Shown: positions 16,055 through 56,699, counted from the first letter of the stretch. The stretch is 64,000 nt of DNA from Patescibacteria group bacterium (GCA_028710985.1 JAQTTB010000001.1:19280-83279), one strand, 5' to 3'. Program-made: numbers and translations. Notes: a model not told the origin generated them from the letters alone.

Positions 16055-17308
16055 ATGGAAATCAAATTAATAAAAATCGCTGAAAAATTTTTCAAAACCG
16101 ACATTAATTATTTAATTAAGGGCGGCTTTTGGCTTACTTCCGGGCAAATCCTTACTTCGCTGTCATCTCTAATTTTAGCAATCGCTTTTGCCAATTTGCT
16201 GGAAAGAGAATCTTATGGCACCTATAGATATATTCTTTCCGCAATCGGCATCATTTCGCTCTTTACTCTTCCGGGAATAAATACCTCTTTGATAAGATCG
16301 ATAGCGAATAATTTTTCCGGATCCTACCTGAAGGCAATTAAGACAAAGTTTAAATTTTCACTGATTGCCACTATAGCTTGCTTAATAGTCGGAATATATT
16401 ATTTTTATTGCCAAAATAATGAAATTGCCTTTTGTTTCTTTATTATTGCATCCATTATCCCTTTCAATAAATCATCCGAACTCTATTTGTCTGTACTGAA
16501 CGGCCAGAAAAGATTTAAACTCTATACTATTCTATATGCGAGTTCAAATATTATTGCAACGTTGTCAATAATCTTAACTTTATTTTTCACGGATAGTTTA
16601 GCGCTAATTTTAACGTCGTATTTCTTATCTTATACGATCCTGCAATTAATATTTTCTTTGTACGTAAAAAAATACCTAAACAACAATGAGGCTGATAATA
16701 CCGTTGAATATGGCATTCATTTGAGCATAATGGATGTAATCAAAACGATCGCCGGACATCTCGACAGGATACTCATATTCAACGCAATGGGACCGTTAGA
16801 GGTGGCTATTTACTCTTTTGCCGTTGTCCCGCATAGCCAGGCAAAAAGTTTCCTCGAAAATATTAAAGTCCTCGCTTTCCCCAAACTTAGCGCGTCCAAC
16901 GAGGAGGATATAAGAAAATTTTTACCAAAAAAAATTCTAAAAATGGAGCTCATAATCGCAATCTTGGTAATCATCTACATCTTCGCCGCTCCGACCCTAT
17001 TCCAAATATTTCTCCCGAAATACATGGATTCGGTCCTCTATTCCCAAGTGTACTTTATCTCGTTGATATTTTTCCCAAGAACAATTTTATCTACCGCAAT
17101 GACCGCAAAAATAAAAAAGAAAGAACTTTATTCCATAAGAATCCTCAGTCCAATACTAAGAATTATACTGATGGTCGTCGGATTAAAATTCTTTCAACTT
17201 TGGGGCGTACTCGTCGCGGGTATGGCGGCAAATGCGCTCATGATGTTAATCTACGGCTATTACTTTAAAAAAGCATTCAAGCAAATCACTTATCAATCAT
17301 CTCTCTAG
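16055..17308 (+). CDS. polysaccharide biosynthesis protein, Wzx-like oligosaccharide flippase (MOP/MATE-like superfamily)
   Basis: 417 aa with about 12-14 predicted TM helices. Typical size and topology for Wzx. It is the only plus-strand gene in the island. Confidence 0.6.
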   Translation: MEIKLIKIAEKFFKTDINYLIKGGFWLTSGQILTSLSSLILAIAFANLLERESYGTYRYILSAIGIISLFTLPGINTSLIRSIANNFSGSYLKAIKTKFKFSLIATIACLIVGIYYFYCQNNEIAFCFFIIASIIPFNKSSELYLSVLNGQKRFKLYTILYASSNIIATLSIILTLFFTDSLALILTSYFLSYTILQLIFSLYVKKYLNNNEADNTVEYGIHLSIMDVIKTIAGHLDRILIFNAMGPLEVAIYSFAVVPHSQAKSFLENIKVLAFPKLSASNEEDIRKFLPKKILKMELIIAILVIIYIFAAPTLFQIFLPKYMDSVLYSQVYFISLIFFPRTILSTAMTAKIKKKELYSIRILSPILRIILMVVGLKFFQLWGVLVAGMAANALMMLIYGYYFKKAFKQITYQSSL

Positions 17309-43416: not shown

Positions 43417-45660
43417 TTATTGCCCCGCCTTCGCTTCTTTCTCGTCAATCATTTTCAGAAACTCATCCGTATCCGCGGATATTGAGGGATCCAACTGTTT
43501 GGCAATATTCGCGTACAACCGCGCGAGCTCATACTCCCCGACTTCAAAATATGCCGCCGCAATACCGGCATATAACCGCGGATCGTTTTCATCAATATTG
43601 TCAATCGCAAAATTATAAAGTTCAATCACCCTCGGCATATTGCCGGCTTTAGCATTAAGTTCAACCATCGCCGCCACTTCCGGAAGATTTACCGGATGTC
43701 CGCCGATTGATGCCGATTTTTCAAATGCCTCAAGTGCTTTATCTTCCCACTCGGCCTCATAGTATGCAATACCTAAATTCCACCATGACTCCGTGACATT
43801 GGGATCGAGGTTCACTGTCTCCAGATAATACTGGACAGCCTCATCGGTGCGGCCAAGATTCAAGAGCGCCTTACCGCGCACAAAACGCAACTGCTGACGA
43901 TCGGGAGAATACCTTAGCGCCTCATCAATGTCCGCGAGCGCCTGTTCATGGTGCGTCGGATCAATCTTACCAAGCTCGAGCTGAATCAAGCTCATGAGAT
44001 AATAATTATATATATTCATGGGATGAAGCGGCACAGTTGCCTTTAGCGCATCGTATGATCGCTCAAGATACTCAGCGAGCTCATCGCTTGGCATTTGCAT
44101 TGAGCGGCTAATTTGCGCCATCTCTCGGCTATAGTAAAGAGGAACCAAATCCGGATATTGGTTTGAGATAGCCATGCCTTTTTCAAATGCTGCGGCCGAA
44201 CCTTTATAATCCCCTGCCTGTGACGCAATCACTCCGCTCCGCACCCAGGTGGAAGCAAACGCGGTCCGAAAAGTAAATAAATACAAAACCGCAAACGAAA
44301 AAATTATCAAGACCGCGAGCCACGCTCCGGCAACGGCTGGAGTATTGATAAACAATCTTCCCTCTTTTTTCGGTTCGGTTGTCTCGCTCTGCCACCAGGC
44401 CAGGCAGAAATAAAACATAATCAATGCATTCGGCTGGTCAAAGATAAAAAGATTTTGCACGAAATATCCGATCAGAATTCCAATTGAGCCGCAATAAATA
44501 TGGGTATCGATTTTACCGCCCTTGAAGGCTTTGGTGAGCTGAATGATTATGAGAGCGAATAAGGCGAGATATGCCGCCGTACCGACCACGCCCGTATTAT
44601 TCAGCATATCCATCATCTGGTTATGCGCATGGTCAAACCATGTTTCGTAGAACGAAAACTCCAGTGACTTTGGATTGTAGTATTTATTGAAAGTATAAAA
44701 ATAATTTTCCGGACCCCAACCAAAAACCGGACGCTCCAAGAATCCCTTCCACGCGATTTCCCAAGCAATAAAGCGCGTCGCCGCCGTGCCACCGGTTAAC
44801 GAAATATCTCGGAAGCGATTGAGGCCGGGAACCTGCGCGGTCCAGGCCTGATCTTTAATCAGCCAAAATCCAGCCGACGCAAGGATTATTGCCAAAAATA
44901 TACCCGCGGAAATTATGCGGATCTTTTTATTATTTTTAAGTATTGCGTAAAGCGCGAGATACACGAGCCCGGCGAGAAAAACTCCAACCATTGCGCCGCG
45001 TGTTTCGGCGAAAAGAAAAGCCAAGAACTGTATTGCGAGCATGGCTCCCCACATTGCCTTGGTTGACCACCGCACGGCTTTTTGCAGAAGAACGAGCGTA
45101 ATGAACATAGTGAAAATCAAATACGCAGCCAAGAAAATCGGATTATTCATAAACGCGCCGGTACGAGCGCCGGTTTGCAGCACCAATTCCGGCGCCACGC
45201 GCTGGATAAAAGCGACAAACGACAGCGCCACGCTCACACCCACATTGAAAATTAAAACTTTTTTCCATTCGCGCCAGCCGCGGAAAACCGAAATTGCCAT
45301 AAAATAAAACAGGAGATAATGGAGAAGCGGCCAAAAACCGGTCATACGTTCGTGATAACTCCAGAAGCTGCGATTCGAATCAACGCCAAAAATCACGGCT
45401 AAAAAAAGTCCGATGAAATACGCCGCAAGCCCGTACATAATAAGCGACCGCCGCGGCCGGTATTCCGGCTTGCGCGCGAGAAGATATATATACCACGGCA
45501 ACGCGCTCATGAGCACGATCATAAGATAGACCGTCTTGCCAAAAATATACGGGTAAACCGTCCATGGCAAAAAAATAAACGGCATCACGAGAGCCGCATA
45601 TACGCTAATTTTTACCCACCAATATGCGATGCGGTCCATTGTTTCAAGATTGTTATTCAT
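43417..45660 (-). CDS. O-antigen ligase (Wzy_C) family membrane protein with C-terminal TPR repeats, a candidate O-oligosaccharyltransferase (PglL/WsaB-like)
   Basis: About 12 TM helices with a large extracytoplasmic loop, typical of Wzy_C. The C-terminal roughly 250 aa contain TPR-like repeats (AYYEAEWEDKALEAFEKS, GRTDEAVQYYLETVNLDP). Confidence 0.65.
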   Translation of the reverse strand: MNNNLETMDRIAYWWVKISVYAALVMPFIFLPWTVYPYIFGKTVYLMIVLMSALPWYIYLLARKPEYRPRRSLIMYGLAAYFIGLFLAVIFGVDSNRSFWSYHERMTGFWPLLHYLLFYFMAISVFRGWREWKKVLIFNVGVSVALSFVAFIQRVAPELVLQTGARTGAFMNNPIFLAAYLIFTMFITLVLLQKAVRWSTKAMWGAMLAIQFLAFLFAETRGAMVGVFLAGLVYLALYAILKNNKKIRIISAGIFLAIILASAGFWLIKDQAWTAQVPGLNRFRDISLTGGTAATRFIAWEIAWKGFLERPVFGWGPENYFYTFNKYYNPKSLEFSFYETWFDHAHNQMMDMLNNTGVVGTAAYLALFALIIIQLTKAFKGGKIDTHIYCGSIGILIGYFVQNLFIFDQPNALIMFYFCLAWWQSETTEPKKEGRLFINTPAVAGAWLAVLIIFSFAVLYLFTFRTAFASTWVRSGVIASQAGDYKGSAAAFEKGMAISNQYPDLVPLYYSREMAQISRSMQMPSDELAEYLERSYDALKATVPLHPMNIYNYYLMSLIQLELGKIDPTHHEQALADIDEALRYSPDRQQLRFVRGKALLNLGRTDEAVQYYLETVNLDPNVTESWWNLGIAYYEAEWEDKALEAFEKSASIGGHPVNLPEVAAMVELNAKAGNMPRVIELYNFAIDNIDENDPRLYAGIAAAYFEVGEYELARLYANIAKQLDPSISADTDEFLKMIDEKEAKAGQ

Positions 45661-47701: not shown

Positions 47702-47739
47702 AAATCCCGCCCCCGGGCGTCCCCAGGGGCGGGATTTTT
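47702..47739. other. GC-rich stem-loop AAATCCCGCCCC-N12-GGGGCGGGATTTTT between the surface-protein gene and the S8 peptidase gene
   Basis: 12-bp perfect stem. The T-run lies on the plus side only. It could be an attenuator or an mRNA-stabilising hairpin. Confidence 0.4.
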
Positions 47740-47777: not shown

Positions 47778-50700
47778 CTAGAAGGTCAATACCACGTTTT
47801 CGGTGAGATCCTTGACGAGATACTCGTCAGTCCAATCACCGGTTGACAACGTATCTAATTGAGCGTTGTGCGGTATTGCCGCCTTGTCTGACCAGACAAG
47901 GTAAGCAGCAACTTCGCCACCCACTACACCGGTTGCATCCAAGTTCGGACCACGTACGGTGCCGACCGCGGCTGCATTCAGGTGATAGGTGTAGATGGTT
48001 GAGCTGCCAGTCTTAATAGTTACGTTAAGCGACTCGCTGGAGCCTGCACCGCCAACCGTACCCTTGAGGGTAAAGATGTGGCCGGAGCCAGAAATGCTCT
48101 GCTCTGTGCCGCTCGTGTAACTAATAAAGATTGTGCCCGAGGCATCGGTTGCGCCTTCAACAGTATTGCCGAGGTTATCAGTGATGGTAACCAAATCGGA
48201 AATATCTGTACCGTCCTGGAACCACTTCAAGGTATCAACCGTGAACGCACCGCTCTTAGTGAATTCGAATGTGAGTTTCGCGACACCCGCATCGCCTGCA
48301 CTGTCTGCGGTAACCTTGGTCTTGTAGAGTTCAATCGTACCGTTGGCCAGGCTCGAGCTAGCTAACGCTTGCTTGGCAAAAGTAAGCTTGGTCTTGCGGA
48401 TAACCATTGGGTTGCCCGCGAGGACCGCCGAGGCCGCCGCGTACACGCGCTCGCCGGACATGGCGCCCGTGCCCTTCACATTGTAACTATTGGTATAGTT
48501 CGCATCCCACTCGCCGGTCGTAACATTGTATTCAACCGCGAGTTTCGGGTTGTTGCCCGAGGTTGCGCCTGCGTCAATCGCGTTCAGCTTGCCAACCACC
48601 TGGAAGGTCACACTGCCGTCAGCCGGCACGGTGATCGGGGTGGAAAGCGTGATGTCGGTCGCCGTCGCCGAACCCGGGAACACATCCGTGCCCGAGGAGA
48701 CGATTACGCCGTCCTTCTGAATCGCGAGGTACTTGAAGTCACTATTTGCGCCGCCGCTATAGCGTTGCAGGCGGATCTTGTCAACGGAGATATTTTCGTA
48801 CTGTGAAGTAATCTTGGCTTGGGCAAAGGTTGTCCAAGCATCCTTACCGGCAATGACAATGTCGGTTGACGGATTTGATTCCGCCGCGATTGTCAATGTA
48901 CCGGAATTCTTCACAGTCTGGAAGATTGTCGGACCGTTGTTGATCGGATTGCTCCAAGTCACGTCGCCGTCAGTCGCAGTAACTGAATTGGCATCTGCGT
49001 CTTCGGCCGAAATATCGGTTTCGAGAGCAATACCGACCCAGAATGTGTCATCCGTACCGCCGGAAGTCGCCACTGAATCAAGTATTGCCTTGACAACCAA
49101 TGTCTTGGTTTCACCCGCCGGAATGCTATAGCTGAGACCGTCAAATGTGGCGGTACCCGCCGTTGCATCCGGGCTCTCGGCCGTGCCGAGCTGAGTCGTG
49201 CCATCCCACAGCGTAAGCTGGGTAATGACATCGTCCAGTTGAGCCGCGGTATAACCCGCACCGTTCACATTGCCCTGACCAGTGACTTTAACGCTCGTCA
49301 CTTTGATTGCGCTCTGTGAACCAGCTGTGAACACAAAACCAGATGAAGCAACATCTGATGTCTTCTTGACATAGGTGTCACTCACCGGAGTCGCGGCCAG
49401 CTGAACTGTCAGACTCGATGTCTTGACCGTCATGGTGTTGCCGGTAATAACCGCATTCGGCACGATTTGGGTTACAGCGAGATATTCGCCTGTGGCATTG
49501 TTCTTCACATAATCGGCAGCAAAGGCATTCAACTTGGCCACATATTGGCGATCGCTGTTGAACCAGGCGTTGTTTGCCACATCGGCCTTGAGGGCCAAAT
49601 TCTTGGTTGTGCCCGCGTTCACATAAAATGAATCGCTAACCACCCAAGTGCAAGTAGTTGCATCCTCACCACAGGCGGGACTTCCGCTTGAAAGTTGAGT
49701 CGGACCGGCGACAACTTCGCCGGAATCGGTATCAACTAATTTGATGTCAGTGAACAGATCTGTGGTGGATGCGTCAATGTAGTCATCACCATTGATACCT
49801 GCCAGTGTGAAGCTGATCTTGCGGACCTCGAGAGTGTTCTCGGCCGCAGTCATGCCAAACTGGAAGAAGATCTGATCCTGGCCGGCCTTTGGCATAGTGC
49901 CAGTCGCCGGACCATTGTAAGCGATCGTCAATTGACCGCCCTCGGTATTCGTGGTTACTGAATCGCCGCTATCAAAATCATCAATGTTCACTGCCGCGCC
50001 CCAGCCATAGGTATTATCTGTGGCATCGACATCGGTAGTGTACTCAAGATAGGTAATGATAGAGCGGCCGCCCTTGCCCACGACATCGGCCTTGACATAA
50101 AGAGTCTTGGTTGTGCCGTTGGAAATGAGATAAGGCGTGGCGAGGATAAAGTTTATCTTATCGCCGACAATTGTCGCTGTTTCGGCCACTAATTCTGTAC
50201 CAACATACAGCTTCAGGTTGGTAACGTCGCTGTTCACGACCGTACCGGCCTGAGCGATGCTGATTTGATTAAGCTTAATATCCGCGCTTGCGGCAGTAAG
50301 CTTAAATGAAGAAATCGTGGCTGCAAGTGATCCAACTGTTACGTTGGCCGGATCTGAACCTTCATTCACCGTCAGAGTGGCGGCATCCTGTGCACCAACC
50401 GTGAAGGTGTTGCCGCGTATCGGGAAACTGCCCGAAACCGTGGCGGTTGTGCCAACCTTACTCGTCGCAACGAGCTCTAGGGCATGTTCATCCGCAGCTA
50501 TTGCGGTTGAACTCAAATCGCCGCGGACCGTGAGATACTTGGTCGTGCCGGCGGTAATCGTCAAGTTCAGGTTGTTGAATTGAGCCTCGTTTGAGCTGGT
50601 ATTGATACTGCGACCGCTCGTCAGTCTTGTTGAACCCTCATAGAGGTAGACGTTCGTGAAGTCGCTCGCTGTACCAACGCCAAGGCGATGGAATGTCAGG

Positions 50701-51557
50701 GTATTAAGAATGACATTGCCGTCCGAGCTCGCGGTCACAGCGACCTTAATAAGCTGCACGCTTGACGAACCCTGGGCGACAGTTGCGCCCGCCGGGGTGT
50801 CAGAGGCCAAGGCCACGGCAAGACCGGTGCCTGTGCCGGAAACGCCGGCTACAAGATCCGTAATGCCCGCTTCACCGCCGGTAACCGCGGTTCCGTCCGC
50901 ATAAGTTACATCGGCCGCGACTGGGCTAATTACGAAACGCCATTGGAACATGTTGGCATCAAATGCCGCCTCGTTCGCAATTGCGCGCTTCTGACCATCC
51001 TGAATGTAGTAGACGGATGCACCAGAAGCATACTTAATCAAGCATCCATTCGGATGCACATAAGTGCTGATTGAGGTGCCGATTGAATAGTTGGTGAAGA
51101 ATGAATCCGGAACGTCAACTACCCAGCTGGCCCAATTTGTTCCCCAGAGTTTCTGGGCAACGGCCTCGGTCTCAACCCAATGCAAAACACCGCCGGTCGT
51201 CACGGCATAAACCTTGGGATCGGTGGTAATTTTGATTAGGAATGTACCTGGGCGGATTGTGATATTTCCGCCGATAGAGACTGCCGCGAGTTCCGCGTCA
51301 GTGATCTCTTTCAGGGTTGAGAAATCGGGGTACCATGAATAATAGGTGTTCTCGTTCGGGAAAACGTATCTCTTACCATCTGCTGCGTAATAATACACCG
51401 CCGGTTGGCTGGCCTTAATAAGGTCGCCTGCGGACAAGGTCGCTGCTTCCGCTGCCAAAGGCATTATGAAAGCCGCAAAACCGATTGACCACGCCATGGT
51501 GGTGATAACTACGCCAACGGTAAGGATCCTCTTTGAAATGCGTAGAACTTCAGTCAT
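47778..51557 (-). CDS. giant secreted cell-surface protein (1259 aa), Thr/Ser/Ala/Gly/Val-rich, a candidate S-layer or surface-layer glycoprotein
   Basis: Signal peptide ending AEAA. Low-complexity beta-rich repeats. GC content is about 55%, far above the neighbouring island. A long structured leader lies upstream. Confidence 0.7.
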   Translation of the reverse strand: MTEVLRISKRILTVGVVITTMAWSIGFAAFIMPLAAEAATLSAGDLIKASQPAVYYYAADGKRYVFPNENTYYSWYPDFSTLKEITDAELAAVSIGGNITIRPGTFLIKITTDPKVYAVTTGGVLHWVETEAVAQKLWGTNWASWVVDVPDSFFTNYSIGTSISTYVHPNGCLIKYASGASVYYIQDGQKRAIANEAAFDANMFQWRFVISPVAADVTYADGTAVTGGEAGITDLVAGVSGTGTGLAVALASDTPAGATVAQGSSSVQLIKVAVTASSDGNVILNTLTFHRLGVGTASDFTNVYLYEGSTRLTSGRSINTSSNEAQFNNLNLTITAGTTKYLTVRGDLSSTAIAADEHALELVATSKVGTTATVSGSFPIRGNTFTVGAQDAATLTVNEGSDPANVTVGSLAATISSFKLTAASADIKLNQISIAQAGTVVNSDVTNLKLYVGTELVAETATIVGDKINFILATPYLISNGTTKTLYVKADVVGKGGRSIITYLEYTTDVDATDNTYGWGAAVNIDDFDSGDSVTTNTEGGQLTIAYNGPATGTMPKAGQDQIFFQFGMTAAENTLEVRKISFTLAGINGDDYIDASTTDLFTDIKLVDTDSGEVVAGPTQLSSGSPACGEDATTCTWVVSDSFYVNAGTTKNLALKADVANNAWFNSDRQYVAKLNAFAADYVKNNATGEYLAVTQIVPNAVITGNTMTVKTSSLTVQLAATPVSDTYVKKTSDVASSGFVFTAGSQSAIKVTSVKVTGQGNVNGAGYTAAQLDDVITQLTLWDGTTQLGTAESPDATAGTATFDGLSYSIPAGETKTLVVKAILDSVATSGGTDDTFWVGIALETDISAEDADANSVTATDGDVTWSNPINNGPTIFQTVKNSGTLTIAAESNPSTDIVIAGKDAWTTFAQAKITSQYENISVDKIRLQRYSGGANSDFKYLAIQKDGVIVSSGTDVFPGSATATDITLSTPITVPADGSVTFQVVGKLNAIDAGATSGNNPKLAVEYNVTTGEWDANYTNSYNVKGTGAMSGERVYAAASAVLAGNPMVIRKTKLTFAKQALASSSLANGTIELYKTKVTADSAGDAGVAKLTFEFTKSGAFTVDTLKWFQDGTDISDLVTITDNLGNTVEGATDASGTIFISYTSGTEQSISGSGHIFTLKGTVGGAGSSESLNVTIKTGSSTIYTYHLNAAAVGTVRGPNLDATGVVGGEVAAYLVWSDKAAIPHNAQLDTLSTGDWTDEYLVKDLTENVVLTF

Positions 51558-51782
51558 AAATAATTTATATCCTTTTGAATTTAATTCTTATCACGCAAGC
51601 GGCCATTGGCCCCGACCTTTTAGCCTGCGCGTTAATTAACTCTGGTACAAGTTCCGACGCCCCAACATAAAGTTGGCGGTCGGAATCCCGACTTCCGCCT
51701 GCGGCGGAATGTCGGGACATCAGCCCATACCCCGGAAACGGCTTCCATAAAAACCGCCTTCGGGGTATTTCCGATGATTAAT
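51558..51782 (-). promoter_or_regulatory. 225-nt structured 5' leader/intergenic region upstream of the surface-protein gene
   Basis: Contains CCCGAC(A)TTCCGCC-gcag-GGCGGAAGTCGGG and a CCCCGAAGGCGG/CCGTTTCCGGGG stem. Confidence 0.45.
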
Positions 51783-52991
51783 TTAATTCGTTACCGCTTT
51801 TGTCGTGGTTGCGGCTCCAGCCACTGCTGGCGTAGATGAAGTCTGAATTACGGGAATGATTGGGTCAGTCGATGAAACCCCAACCGGTTCGGTTATAATC
51901 GGCGTCTCGCTTGCTTCACTCTGATTTTCGGCTCCAACCGCCGAAGCCAGGGTATTCACTTCTTTTACCGCCGCAATCGCCCCGACTAAATCATTATTTT
52001 CCAAAAGTTCCCGTGCCTCCACAACTTTTTCCGCCAGTTGATCGGCAGTCGCGGTTGATGCTCCCGTTACCCCGATAACTTCACCCGTGCCGCTCGCCGC
52101 ACCAGTAATCACCTCTCCGGTCGAAGACGCGGCCTCCGAACCCACCGGGGTAGAAATTACCTCCGCGGTACCCGAAGCGCTCGTTACTCCAACCAACGCT
52201 GCCGCGGCTTCGGCTCTTTCCAGCTTGCTCGTAATTTTTTCAATTACTTCTTCCTCGGTGATTCCTTCGGCCTGACCCTGGGCGTGTTTCTCTACGATGA
52301 CTTCAACGGCCTTAACTGCCGTTACCTCAACAACCGCTTTCGCTTCTTGGACATCATTCTTATTGACATCGGAAAGCTTGTCCATGGTTTCCTGCAATTT
52401 ATTTTCAAACTCTTCAGATTTTTCATCAACGATTTTCGCCACCTCAACCGCCTTCTTTGAAGAACTTTTTTGTTTAATTTCTTCCAGATCATCCTGAACT
52501 GTTTTCATGCCTTTTTTAAAATCCGCCATGGACTTGGTTAGCTTTTCTTCCTTCCTTATATCGGGTTTCTCAATCAACTTAGTCGCTTCTTCCAGCCGCC
52601 GTCCGGCAAAATCAATGCGCAGTTTTGTTTTAACTTCCCGGGCCGGCGAAAGGGTTATTTGCGCGCCTTCGGAAAATAATTTTACGCCGTAAAGCGCATC
52701 ACCCGGCAAGCTGCCAAAAGACGCACTCACTGTCGCGGTCCAGCTGCCAAATACCAGAAATACGATAACCATGGCTGCGACAACCGGACGAAACGCCTTA
52801 GACCAGCCGGTGCTTACATCCACTGCCAATGAAAAATTTTCAAGCAGACTGCCGGTTTTCTCCGCCGCCGGCGCGTCCTGTCTTGCGTGAGCAAGCATGC
52901 TTTCGCGCGTTGACAATACCCAAGCCTCACGCGCTTTGCCGCCCGCTTTCGTCTTACCGAGATTATTCAATTGTTCTACCAATTTATCCAT
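51783..52991 (-). CDS. membrane-spanning anti-sigma factor candidate (DUF5667-like extracytoplasmic domain, T/S-rich tail)
   Basis: Sits 9 nt downstream of the ECF sigma gene. One TM helix at about residues 68-90. Coiled-coil, Lys/Glu-rich middle region. Confidence 0.5.
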   Translation of the reverse strand: MDKLVEQLNNLGKTKAGGKAREAWVLSTRESMLAHARQDAPAAEKTGSLLENFSLAVDVSTGWSKAFRPVVAAMVIVFLVFGSWTATVSASFGSLPGDALYGVKLFSEGAQITLSPAREVKTKLRIDFAGRRLEEATKLIEKPDIRKEEKLTKSMADFKKGMKTVQDDLEEIKQKSSSKKAVEVAKIVDEKSEEFENKLQETMDKLSDVNKNDVQEAKAVVEVTAVKAVEVIVEKHAQGQAEGITEEEVIEKITSKLERAEAAAALVGVTSASGTAEVISTPVGSEAASSTGEVITGAASGTGEVIGVTGASTATADQLAEKVVEARELLENNDLVGAIAAVKEVNTLASAVGAENQSEASETPIITEPVGVSSTDPIIPVIQTSSTPAVAGAATTTKAVTN

Positions 52992-53000
52992 TTATCGGGT

Positions 53001-53546
53001 TTATTTATTGTCTTGCTGCTCCATAATTTCACGTAATGCCGCGAGCGAGCGGTGAAGCAGAACCCGCACATTGTTTCCGCTTTTCTGCAAAATACTCGCG
53101 ATTTCGCCAGCTGTCATATTATCCAGATACTTCATCACCACAATCTCGCGATACTCATCCTTTAGTTTATTCAGCGCACGGTAAATCCTCGCCAAGTCAG
53201 ACTGCTTCTCCAGTTCCGCCAGTCCAACGATGTCCACTTCTCCGGCCGTCTCTTCCATGAGCTGAATATCGCTCTTTCTCTGCCGATAATGGTCAATGAC
53301 CAAATTCCGCGCAATTGTGTAGAGTAGGGCTCCCACACTTTTCACCGGCTGGCTGCCTGCAAGATAATCCCAGGCTTTTAAAAAAACCTCTGAACTCAAG
53401 TCTTCAGCTTCTTGTTCCGAGGATACTTTAAAAAAAATAAATCTATATATCTTGGCGCCGTAATCATCATATAACTCTGCAAATGCCCCTGCGTCCTGCT
53501 TCGCCTTGATCTTATAGACCAGTATTTTTTCTTTGAATTTATTCAT
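53001..53546 (-). CDS. RNA polymerase sigma-70 factor, ECF subfamily
   Basis: Region 2 (YDDYGAKIYRFIFFKV...VFLKAW) and region 4 HTH (MTAGEIASILQKSGNNVRVLLHRSLAAL). Confidence 0.8.
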   Translation of the reverse strand: MNKFKEKILVYKIKAKQDAGAFAELYDDYGAKIYRFIFFKVSSEQEAEDLSSEVFLKAWDYLAGSQPVKSVGALLYTIARNLVIDHYRQRKSDIQLMEETAGEVDIVGLAELEKQSDLARIYRALNKLKDEYREIVVMKYLDNMTAGEIASILQKSGNNVRVLLHRSLAALREIMEQQDNK

Positions 53547-53702: not shown

Positions 53703-53999
53703 ATGTCTTCATCCATTCGCTTATCCGTATCCGAAGCCGCCCGGCTTTTTGGCATTAGTGAAAAAACCCTGCGCCGCGCCATCATTAATAAGGAAATCAA
53801 CTATATCGTGGTTGCCGGCCGGTACAAGCTAAATTTTGAAAGCCTGGTCAAGTGGTCCCAGCAAAAAACCACGGTGCGCCGCAAATCCGAAAAATACGGC
53901 ATCGACCAATTTGTGGATAAATGGCGCCTCTCCGCCACCCTCTACTCCCCCAACCCACCCGCCACGGAACAAGAGAACAATTCAACAATACAACAATAG
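53703..53999 (+). CDS. small helix-turn-helix DNA-binding protein (excisionase-family HTH)
   Basis: SVSEAARLFGISEKTLRRAIINKEINYIVVAGRYKLNFESLVKW matches the XIS/MerR-like HTH pattern. 98 aa. Confidence 0.6.
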   Translation: MSSSIRLSVSEAARLFGISEKTLRRAIINKEINYIVVAGRYKLNFESLVKWSQQKTTVRRKSEKYGIDQFVDKWRLSATLYSPNPPATEQENNSTIQQ

Positions 54000-55353: not shown

Positions 55354-55664
55354 TTAAACAACCCACTATACCACATTTTTGCGTTTTTGTCAACTCTCGA
55401 GTCCGGCCAGCTCTTGACAAAACCCGCAATTTATGATATACTTTACCGTTAAAGTCAAAATGGAACAGTCGTATCTTATGACAAATTTTGGCTAAAGCAA
55501 GCCCTTTACAACCTTCTCCCAAGCGTCGAATCTACATTTTCTGGCTATTTTCAGCAATGGTTGGCACACAGTTCAACCCCACCTGCTCGGCTTATATTAT
55601 GCAGATTCATCGCTTAGGAGAAGCAAAACAACCTAAACGCAAAAAACACCGAGGAGGGTGTAAA

Positions 55665-56699
55665 ATGAAGAACTCCAGGATAGTGCTGATTCTCTGCGCC
55701 CTGGTACTGATGGCCTGCGAGACGAGGTACGTGGACGTGGGCGGCGAGCCCGACACCTCCATCGACACCGCGTCCGACAGCGTGGAGCTCTGCTCCGACG
55801 GCCTGGACAACGACATGGACGGCCTGGTCGACTGCAACGACAACGACGGCGACGAGAACTGCCCGCCGTGCGCGGACGCGTCAACCGACGCCGTGGCCGA
55901 CGAGATCGAGGACAGCGCAGAAACCGACGTCCCGCCCGTGGAGCTCTGCTCCGACGGCCTGGACAACGACTTCGACGGACTCGTGGACTGCAACGACGGG
56001 GACGACTGCTGCGATGAAGCAGTGTGCGTTACGAGCGAGCACTGCGCTTCGGAAGACGCTTCAAGCGACTCCGAAGAGGAAGCCGACGCAGTCTCCGACT
56101 CGGGTGCGGATTCGGATCCCGCCGAGGACCCCGTGCCTGACACTGATCCCGACACCGCCTCCGACCCGGATAGCGCAAGCGATCCGGACGCGGTCTCTGA
56201 CCCGGACGTGGTGGACGCCGAAGCCGACGCAGCTGACATCCTCCACTCCGGCCTGGCCACGTTCAAGTGGTGCCGGCCCATGACCATGGCGCGCCCCGAC
56301 CACATTCTCGCGGAATGCTTTGTCTGGGGAAGCCTCTATGAAAGCTGGGATGACTCCTGGGAGCTGGCAACCGGCTCTCCGGACTTCGTCGCACCGGCCG
56401 ACAGCGACTGCATCGAGTTCACCCTGCCAGATCTGGATTACACGCTCCTCGGAATAAGCGTAGAGTGCAACATCACTGCCTATTCCGACTCGGCGTACGG
56501 GCCGTGGGGACGCATCTACGCTCTCGGCGAGTGCACGTGCGGCGGCAGCTGTGTCGTAAAAGGCACGCTTACCGTCCGTTCCGGTCCCGACGCTGATGAC
56601 GCAACCGCCTTGGATCTCACGAGCCTAGTCGTGCAGAATCCGCGATGCGCGTCCCTGAGCGACCAGGCCGGCAACTACGTCCTCTCACCTATTCCATAG
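55665..56699 (+). CDS. secreted acidic lipoprotein with thrombospondin type-3-like calcium-binding repeats (high-GC compositional outlier)
   Basis: Strong RBS GAGGAGG 7 nt upstream of the ATG at 55665. Lipobox LVLMAC. Two repeats: [27 protein letters not shown] and [22 protein letters not shown]. Poly-(DPD[ST]AS) tract. GC above 60%. The ORF track's longer start at 55488 was rejected. Confidence 0.6.

Follow-up and report, generated by a model that had tools for sequence, protein, structure and literature searches.

A large exported protein of an Uhrbacteria-like Patescibacterium as a probable S-layer protein with a putative, swapped N-terminal anchor

The window analysed here is a 64,000-nucleotide (nt) stretch of DNA from a Patescibacteria group bacterium (GCA_028710985.1 JAQTTB010000001.1:19280-83279), and all positions are counted from its first letter. 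Its longest open reading frame (ORF), at 47778..51557 on the minus strand, encodes a secreted protein of 1259 amino acids (aa), the runner-up encoding 747 aa, which agrees with an initial annotation of the sequence that had singled out this gene as the largest in the window. The product is 100% identical to the NCBI entry 'hypothetical protein PHW53_00295' from the metagenome-assembled genome of a Patescibacteria group bacterium. We propose that this giant gene probably encodes a surface-layer (S-layer) protein, and base this on the predicted architecture of the product and on the exchange of its N-terminal module for known wall-binding domains in homologues with the same body. The coding region is divided as follows.

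47778..51557, minus strand: whole gene, secreted protein of 1259 aa (ORF call, ATG start)
51444..51557, minus strand: signal peptide, residues 1-38, predicted cut between AEA and AT (hydrophobic stretch and invariant Ala)
50853..51443, minus strand: N-terminal module (N-module), residues 39-235, putative cell-wall anchor (AlphaFold2 secondary structure)
47781..50825, minus strand: six beta-sandwich (immunoglobulin (Ig)-/cohesin-like) domains, putative lattice-forming body (AlphaFold2 secondary structure and hhalign)
50418-50825, minus strand: Ig1, residues 245-380
49995-50417, minus strand: Ig2, residues 381-521
49422-49994, minus strand: Ig3, residues 522-712
48933-49421, minus strand: Ig4, residues 713-875
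48405-48932, minus strand: Ig5, residues 876-1051
47781-48404, minus strand: Ig6, residues 1052-1259

The N-terminus consists of an n-region with Lys and Arg, a hydrophobic stretch at residues 11-36, which is the sole hydrophobic segment of the protein, and then A-E-A followed by A at 36-39, with A36 and A38 invariant across 62 homologues. These features make up a cleavable Sec signal peptide for export, the route to the surface expected of an S-layer protein. An LPXTG motif, a C-terminal transmembrane segment and a second hydrophobic segment were all looked for in the protein and none was found. Five residues, T (13.2%), A (12.1%), G (9.2%), V (9.0%) and S (8.3%), together make up 51.8% of the sequence, and the mature protein of 127 kDa has an isoelectric point (pI) of 4.44 and three Cys; a pI of 4.4 and only 3 Cys amount to an S-layer-like chemistry. 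Both the signal peptide and the richness in Thr, Ser, Gly, Ala and Val had been noted in the initial annotation and are borne out here.

Two AlphaFold2 models built from a 62-sequence alignment covered residues 39-660 and 620-1259 with predicted local distance difference test (pLDDT) scores of 87.9 and 89.4, respectively. In the predicted secondary structure the N-module is composed of three units of ~60 aa, each with the order beta-beta-beta-alpha-beta-alpha and the motif GDLIK..VYY...GKRYVFPNE.TY.SW, while everything C-terminal of it is beta-sandwich in both halves. Homology among the sandwich domains was detected by hhalign, at 81-99% for Ig1-Ig4 pairs, 92% for Ig2-Ig5 and 89% for Ig2-Ig6. 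The beta-sandwich or Ig-like array that the initial annotation had suggested looking for takes the form of six homologous domains.

Searches of Pfam, NCBIfam and PDB sequences with the whole protein, the 62-sequence profile and the isolated N-module returned nothing significant (best E about 0.02-0.5; about 0.1 for the whole protein against PDB), and the isolated N-module had zero Pfam matches even at E<10. Among known wall-binding domains, S-layer homology (SLH, PF00395) was absent from the window protein by Pfam search, and PG_binding_1 (PF01471), the peptidoglycan-binding domain (PGBD), was detected neither in the protein nor in the isolated N-module; the predicted module is beta-rich, whereas PGBD is a three-helix domain. 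Foldseek against PDB retrieved only tandem Ig-like arrays, namely integrin alpha legs, PrgB, AgI/II C123 and complement MG domains, at TM-scores <0.25, and RbmA and a fibrillar-adhesin CLIPPER domain are likewise among the structural matches. No enzyme fold or catalytic domain was found by Pfam, NCBIfam, PDB or Foldseek searches, as the initial annotation, which had seen no enzymatic motif, would lead one to expect.

Identity to distant homologues is 69-75% in the first two units of the N-module, about 50% in Ig1-2 and 31% in Ig6. Such a drop from the putative anchor to Ig6 is what one would expect if the anchor lies close to the wall and the far end is more exposed. Ig2 ends in an invariant acidic loop, Y503-E505-D509-D514-G520 (YLEYTTDVDATDNTYGWG; residues 503-520, about 49998-50051). 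The loop YLEYTTDVDATDNTYGWG could be a candidate metal (Ca2+) site like those that stabilise some S-layers.

Full-length relatives, 41-69% identical, are numerous: 1146 matches were found (>1000 at 90% clustering), none with a protein name. In GTDB, loci of at least 80 species contain a homologue, and nearly all of these species bear the label Uhrbacteria or Patescibacteria; a divergent family member leads on to proteins of Falkowbacteria and Pacebacteria. When the six-domain body alone was used as query in a HMMER scan over 1.84 billion cluster representatives, it matched 2253, 1483 and 489 representatives at E 1e-3, 1e-10 and 1e-30, respectively, most of them 1120-1440 aa long and collinear along the entire body. 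Judged from these matches, the family is large and confined to Patescibacteria. Many public records with this gene are titled 'uncultured Gammaproteobacteria', and single fragments are labelled Acidobacteriota, Thermoplasmata or Methylomirabilis (L005, L010, L014, L017 and about 35 more loci; P0179 and P0281); such labels are most likely placeholder names or binning errors. The giant gene is single in the window, and each related locus holds one full-length gene. Tandem full-length paralogues considered at L077 and L080, two relatives from the window-like subclade, were rejected, as the second ORFs there are shorter: L077 11601-13364 (587 aa) and L080 8200-9432 (410 aa) lie downstream of the giant gene and are similar by tblastn to parts of it.

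The N-terminus of these relatives belongs to one of several classes. A tally of the ~200-300 N-terminal residues of 124 full-length representatives, with example members confirmed by Pfam, assigned 73 to the family of the window-type module, 24 to PG_binding_1, 18 to three SLH domains and 4 to an NBR1-like Ig domain, the remaining 5 having none or being fragments. Window residues 236-1209 align collinearly (E 3e-97) with residues 126-1088 of A0A1F6BM51 from Jorgensenbacteria, a 'Peptidoglycan binding-like domain-containing protein' with PG_binding_1 at its N-terminus, and homology of the body extends to Parcubacteria proteins of 1134-1185 aa with a PGBD anchor, a kind described in PMC10936435 and in the preprint discussed below. 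Proteins of Peregrinibacteria type with three N-terminal SLH domains are matched by the body as well, at E 1e-105 to 2e-89; Pfam found SLH in homologues P0381, P0388 and P0414, and the Peregrinibacteria protein MBI2463500.1 of this class is titled 'S-layer homology domain-containing protein'. These alignments show orthology of the six-domain body between many lineages of Patescibacteria, with its N-terminal anchor swapped between the window module, three SLH domains and PG_binding_1, and this evidence is independent of any lattice modelling.

With the N-module as query, 725 further proteins of Patescibacteria were retrieved at 45-70% identity, most of them short. In these the module is fused N- or C-terminally to cupredoxin, Big_1 or TSP3 domains, and a 179-aa paralogue of the module is encoded by the same genome. 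Since the module is interchangeable with known wall-binding domains and common to other exoproteins, we consider it most likely to be a cell-wall anchor.

A comparable family has been described in a preprint (bioRxiv 10.1101/2024.05.28.596244), whose supplement reports a scan of a Nealsonbacteria genome that yielded a proposed S-layer protein whose six Ig-like domains wind into a left-handed spiral. The same work predicts hexagonal-pyramid S-layers for Patescibacterial six-Ig proteins of 1131-1274 aa, and places homologues of its candidate among the top five expressed signal-peptide genes in 2 of the 3 species of a published metatranscriptome (PMC10936435). In that metatranscriptome study, Kuroda et al. 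describe high expression in Paceibacteria of secreted proteins, some of which have peptidoglycan-binding domains and some Ig-like folds. S-layers are visible by electron microscopy in some Patescibacteria. The members named in the preprint are A0A1G2EN61 (Nealsonbacteria, 1131 aa), A0A1F5NRV7 (Doudnabacteria, 1264 aa), GMX59286.1 (1185 aa), A0A0G1WWP5 and A0A1F4NSF7, and their S-layer role is a computational prediction plus expression data. Like them, the window protein comes from Patescibacteria, starts with a signal peptide, has a putative N-terminal anchor that precedes six Ig-like domains, and falls in their length class (1259 aa, within a range of about 1130-1275); the preprint's statement 'Homologs numerous across many Patescibacterial classes' agrees with the 2253 representatives found for the window body. 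The window protein differs from the related Parcubacteria homologues in having an unannotated three-unit module where their PG-binding domain sits. Three of our homologues, P0399 (1264 aa), P0497 (1185 aa) and P0301 (1173 aa), were considered as the preprint's own proteins and rejected, their accessions being other or none and P0497 coming from a different assembly.

Similar designs are known from characterised S-layers. SLH-anchored S-layer proteins such as Bacillus anthracis Sap and Geobacillus SbsB also have a signal peptide, a tripartite N-terminal wall anchor that occurs on other exoproteins too, and a string of beta-sandwich domains for assembly. The window protein lacks SLH by Pfam and the bodies of the Bacillus proteins are not related to it in sequence, but SLH-bearing Peregrinibacteria homologues such as MBI2463500.1 share the six-domain body itself (E about 1e-90). 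In Clostridioides difficile SlpA and the Cwp proteins, three tandem anchor units are likewise common to the main S-layer protein and other wall proteins; no CWB2 match was found in the window protein, however, and its units of about 60 aa (beta-beta-beta-alpha-beta-alpha) contrast with the ~90-aa CWB2 fold. The S-layer glycoprotein of Haloferax volcanii (csg), to which the preprint finds a 'striking resemblance' of the Patescibacterial architecture (bioRxiv 10.1101/2024.05.28.596244), is glycosylated and arranges six Ig-like domains in a spiral within hexagonal units. It is archaeal, though, and is held by a lipid at its C-terminus, not by a module at the N-terminus that binds the wall; csg was not detected by sequence and lies outside the top structural matches of the window protein.

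Around the coding region, the following elements and genes were identified.

53001..53546, minus strand: extracytoplasmic function (ECF)-type sigma factor (best NCBIfam match BldN family, 112 bits, below the 206-bit cutoff)
51783..52991, minus strand: DUF5667 membrane protein (domain search), putative anti-sigma factor
51595..51622, minus strand: leader element, the conserved upstream element AAAAGGTCGG followed by a short hairpin, with AAGGTCG at 51613-51619
47702..47737, minus strand: terminator-like hairpin, 16 bp, GC-rich, 41 nt past the stop codon
45662..47620, minus strand: S8 subtilase, secreted, carrying FG-GAP repeats; its gene separates the giant gene from Wzy_C and is outside the conserved core
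43417..45660, minus strand: Wzy_C (O-antigen-ligase-type) polytopic membrane protein with C-terminal TPR, candidate O-oligosaccharyltransferase

The leader element is a nearly constant companion of the giant gene. Of 68 upstream regions, 66 contain AAGGTCG, mostly in the form AAAGGTCGA, at a distance of 62-248 nt from the ATG, and in 961 kb of related loci the motif is essentially restricted to this leader. A hairpin starts 1-2 nt after the motif; 62 unique leaders contain 51 different arm sequences in which pairing is kept, and the mean folding free energy is -10.1 kcal/mol (z -2.0), compared with -4.2 for the control segment. An Rfam search of the gene and its flanks gave no match, and no sigma-70-type promoter was found in the upstream intergenic region. 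A clean -35 box was also rejected, there being only a partly conserved ATCCTC-like block, present in 31 of 62 leaders at a spacing of 18-21 nt. We infer that the element comprises the -10 region and transcription start of an independent, specialised promoter together with a 5'-terminal stabilising stem-loop. Stem-loops of this kind are a feature of abundant, long-lived mRNAs. At the other end of the gene, the 88-nt stretch containing the terminator-like hairpin has a minimum free energy of -48 kcal/mol (z -6.6), and none of 200 shuffled sequences was equally stable. A 5' hairpin and a strong putative terminator are consistent with high expression of the giant gene, without being proof of it. 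In many relatives (L003-L043) there is a second small hairpin, CCC-loop-GGGTT or TCC-loop-GGATT, in the last ~25 nt before the ATG, which encloses a Shine-Dalgarno-like AGGG or AGGA and may modulate translation.

Gene order was counted over non-redundant related loci, 72 for the upstream genes and 57 for the downstream Wzy_C gene. The ECF sigma gene precedes the giant gene and shares its strand in 72/72 relatives, the DUF5667 gene is immediately upstream in 69/72, and the Wzy_C(+TPR) gene, again on that strand, begins no more than 3.5 kb downstream in 57/57, usually succeeded by an opposite-strand glycosyltransferase family 4 (GT4) gene and further glycan genes. The order in the window equals that of the relatives, apart from the added S8 protease; a downstream S8 match is limited to the window-like subclade (L075-L077), other relatives having a GHL15+FG-GAP protein upstream. 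The DUF5667 protein has a short cytoplasmic N-terminus, one transmembrane segment, an extracellular part with DUF5667 and a long coiled coil, and a low-complexity C-terminal tail rich in S, T, A, G and V. Because it lacks a zinc-binding anti-sigma motif, its putative anti-sigma role follows from position only; a literature search found no published work on DUF5667. One PGBD-type homologue of the giant gene adjoins dnaA/dnaN, with no ECF, DUF5667 or Wzy_C gene, and for this reason the ECF/DUF5667/Wzy_C neighbourhood is a trait of the Uhrbacteria-like branch and not of the whole family.

Further downstream, the low-GC block at 16001-41300 (37.8%) holds about 25 genes, all on the minus strand except that for a Wzx-type flippase (16055-17308, plus strand), among them several GT4 genes, methyltransferases, an Asn-synthase-like amidotransferase and an epimerase/dehydratase. 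It is probably a variable, laterally exchanged glycan cluster. In the S-layer glycosylation systems described in PMC2943079, the S-layer O-oligosaccharyltransferase WsfB, like PglL, combines Wzy_C with TPR, its transferase role being a prediction; slg clusters are low in GC, and the monocistronic S-layer gene of Geobacillus adjoins the slg cluster. Geobacillus stearothermophilus SgsE and Paenibacillus alvei SpaA with their slg loci (WsaB, WsfB) thus resemble the window in the combination of an S-layer gene, a low-GC glycan cluster and a Wzy_C membrane protein (PMC2943079), but their clusters use a Wzm/Wzt ABC transporter where the window has a Wzx-type flippase, and their S-layer proteins are not related to the window protein in sequence.

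Cumulatively, our findings suggest that the giant gene probably encodes the S-layer, or surface-array, protein of an Uhrbacteria-like Patescibacterium. The initial annotation had reached the same reading partly on compositional grounds; high GC and repetitive DNA are invalid as support (see below), and the reading now stands on the collinear SLH- and PGBD-anchored homologues, the preprint's prediction and the conservation gradient. In the mechanism that we propose, the N-module would hold the protein non-covalently on peptidoglycan or a wall polymer and would likewise tether the small exoproteins that carry it, whereas the six domains would spiral outward and supply the lattice contacts. Transcription of the gene would be monocistronic and probably strong, with a conserved promoter and leader element specific to it, a 5' hairpin and a strong terminator, and the ECF sigma/DUF5667 pair may regulate it or sense the state of the envelope. 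The neighbouring low-GC cluster would make a lipid-linked glycan, to be flipped by the Wzx-type flippase and transferred by the Wzy_C-TPR protein to Ser, Thr or Tyr of the exported giant protein. The role of glycan acceptor that the initial annotation had given to the protein has indirect support from the conserved Wzy_C(+TPR) neighbour and the glycan cluster beyond it. By analogy with the systems above, the chances that the adjoining Wzy_C-TPR enzyme O-glycosylates the protein are about even.

Several observations weigh against this interpretation or parts of it. The triplication of the N-module is weakly backed by profile comparison (E about 1e-3). Codon bias (effective number of codons, Nc, 45) lies inside the range of the neighbouring genes and does not single out the giant gene; as a proxy for its expression it is uninformative. 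No copy of the leader motif precedes the ECF gene, where the sequence is AT-rich and unrelated, so that an autoregulated ECF promoter common to the sigma gene and the giant gene was rejected and control of the giant gene by the adjoining sigma factor is plausible only. The Bacteroidota-type sequon D(S/T)(A/I/L/V/M/T) occurs at 5 sites in the giant protein against 8.1 expected, neither enriched nor conserved, and glycosylation, for which no conserved sequon was found, is a well-motivated proposal. Moreover, Wzy_C proteins can be polymerases or ligases for non-protein acceptors. Finally, that the window and preprint families are the same we infer from phylum, length, six-domain architecture and PGBD-bearing homologues, the listed accessions having been compared by description.

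Three other explanations are in our view less likely than an S-layer protein because the six-domain design is fixed, the length range is narrow, wall anchors are swapped and the body also occurs outside the glycan and ECF context. The protein could be a wall-anchored adhesin or a stalk by which an epibiont attaches to its host or to particles, projecting as single molecules without a lattice. A host-attached life is assumed for Patescibacteria (PMC11665869), Kuroda et al. take the related PGBD proteins that are highly expressed to serve in attachment to the host (PMC10936435), and the best structural matches include Ig-like arrays of adhesins, namely PrgB, AgI/II C123, RbmA and a fibrillar-adhesin CLIPPER domain. 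Yet fibrillar adhesins usually vary in length and in the number of near-identical repeats, while here six anciently diverged domains are kept in a fixed collinear architecture within a narrow length range over hundreds of species, encoded by a gene with no DNA repeats that is single in the window and present as one full-length gene in the fixed context of each related locus; nor was a distinct terminal ligand-binding head domain seen in the AlphaFold2 models. We therefore regard an adhesin as unlikely.

That the six sandwich domains form a cohesin-like scaffold docking secreted proteins, with the N-module of the small exoproteins as its 'dockerin', is more improbable still. Pfam found no cohesin (PF00963) in the window protein, as a scaffoldin would contain, and the likeness is a generic one at the level of jelly-roll or sandwich folds; the giant protein carries the N-module itself, and at the position of that module its homologues have SLH or PG_binding_1, which are wall-binding domains and not dockerins. 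Strict co-location with the ECF sigma, the DUF5667 protein, Wzy_C-TPR and glycosyltransferases would also suit an accessory of envelope-glycan assembly or a ligand in envelope-stress signalling (a periplasm-side scaffold of the Wzy_C pathway, or the input to ECF/DUF5667) instead of a structural coat. However, PGBD-type homologues occur in unrelated neighbourhoods, for example beside dnaA/dnaN with no ECF or Wzy_C gene, and therefore the six-domain body functions outside that setting; an exported protein of 127 kDa, with six domains and wall anchors that can be exchanged, would moreover be an unusual design for a pathway accessory, and we give this explanation the least weight of all, as very improbable.

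Much of bacterial diversity belongs to Patescibacteria, hardly any of which are in culture and whose way of life depends on contact between surfaces, and we know of no Patescibacterial coat protein that has been demonstrated experimentally. The locus offers a concrete and very widespread candidate. If the giant protein is indeed an S-layer protein, it would provide a cell-surface marker for the whole lineage, a new anchor domain by which more surface proteins attached to the wall could be recognised in these genomes, a minimal bacterium in which S-layer O-glycosylation can be tested and a conserved regulatory unit, the ECF pair with the leader element, governing coat synthesis. Ig-array S-layer proteins with interchangeable anchors are already known as a kind, and related proteins are predicted as S-layer proteins in the preprint; established concepts are thus unchanged, and the new findings are the variant of the anchor, the leader element and a sigma/anti-sigma-like/Wzy_C neighbourhood that is invariant. 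A wider and more tentative proposal joins these elements: the N-module, as a 'VY-repeat' module, may be an undescribed Patescibacteria anchor, and ECF, DUF5667, S-layer and Wzy_C-TPR genes may form a fixed module in the Uhrbacteria-like branch. If so, the VY-repeat module, with its two or three units of ~60 aa, would correspond in function to SLH, CWB2 and PGBD and be largely specific to Patescibacteria, tethering the S-layer protein as well as surface enzymes (cupredoxins, Big_1 proteins), and the fixed module with its AAAGGTCGA promoter/5'-hairpin leader would couple envelope sensing, coat production and coat glycosylation.

With regard to base composition, the GC content of the giant gene is 53.1%, where the initial annotation gave about 55%, and the supposedly adjacent island of about 35% GC is the block of 37.8% at 16001-41300, which ends 6.5 kb away. 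The gene is ordinary for its genome, its GC at third codon positions (GC3) being 0.59, as compared with 0.59 for rpsB, 0.58 for gap and 0.49-0.63 for the compared genes outside the island; a compositional anomaly or horizontal transfer was rejected because GC3 matches that of native neighbours. Antisense ORFs are present inside the gene as had been described (five of at least 80 aa), but their attribution to GC-rich repetitive DNA fails, as no tandem DNA repeats were found in the gene, and DNA repeats were rejected as their origin. A weak periodicity of ~430-500 nt is all that is seen in the DNA, because each protein domain has one conserved strand motif; repetition in the gene is at the level of ancient protein domains, not of DNA.

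Two further genes of the region deserve mention. A small gene of the HTH_17/excisionase family (53703-53999, plus strand), divergent from the ECF gene, is kept in many relatives at 39-67% identity and may be a further regulator of the locus. The ORF at 55488-56699 (plus strand), which has the highest GC of the region (61%, GC3 74%) and matches the NCBIfam 'acidic double-disulfide repeat' at E 4e-12, probably encodes another secreted protein, its true start likely being internal.

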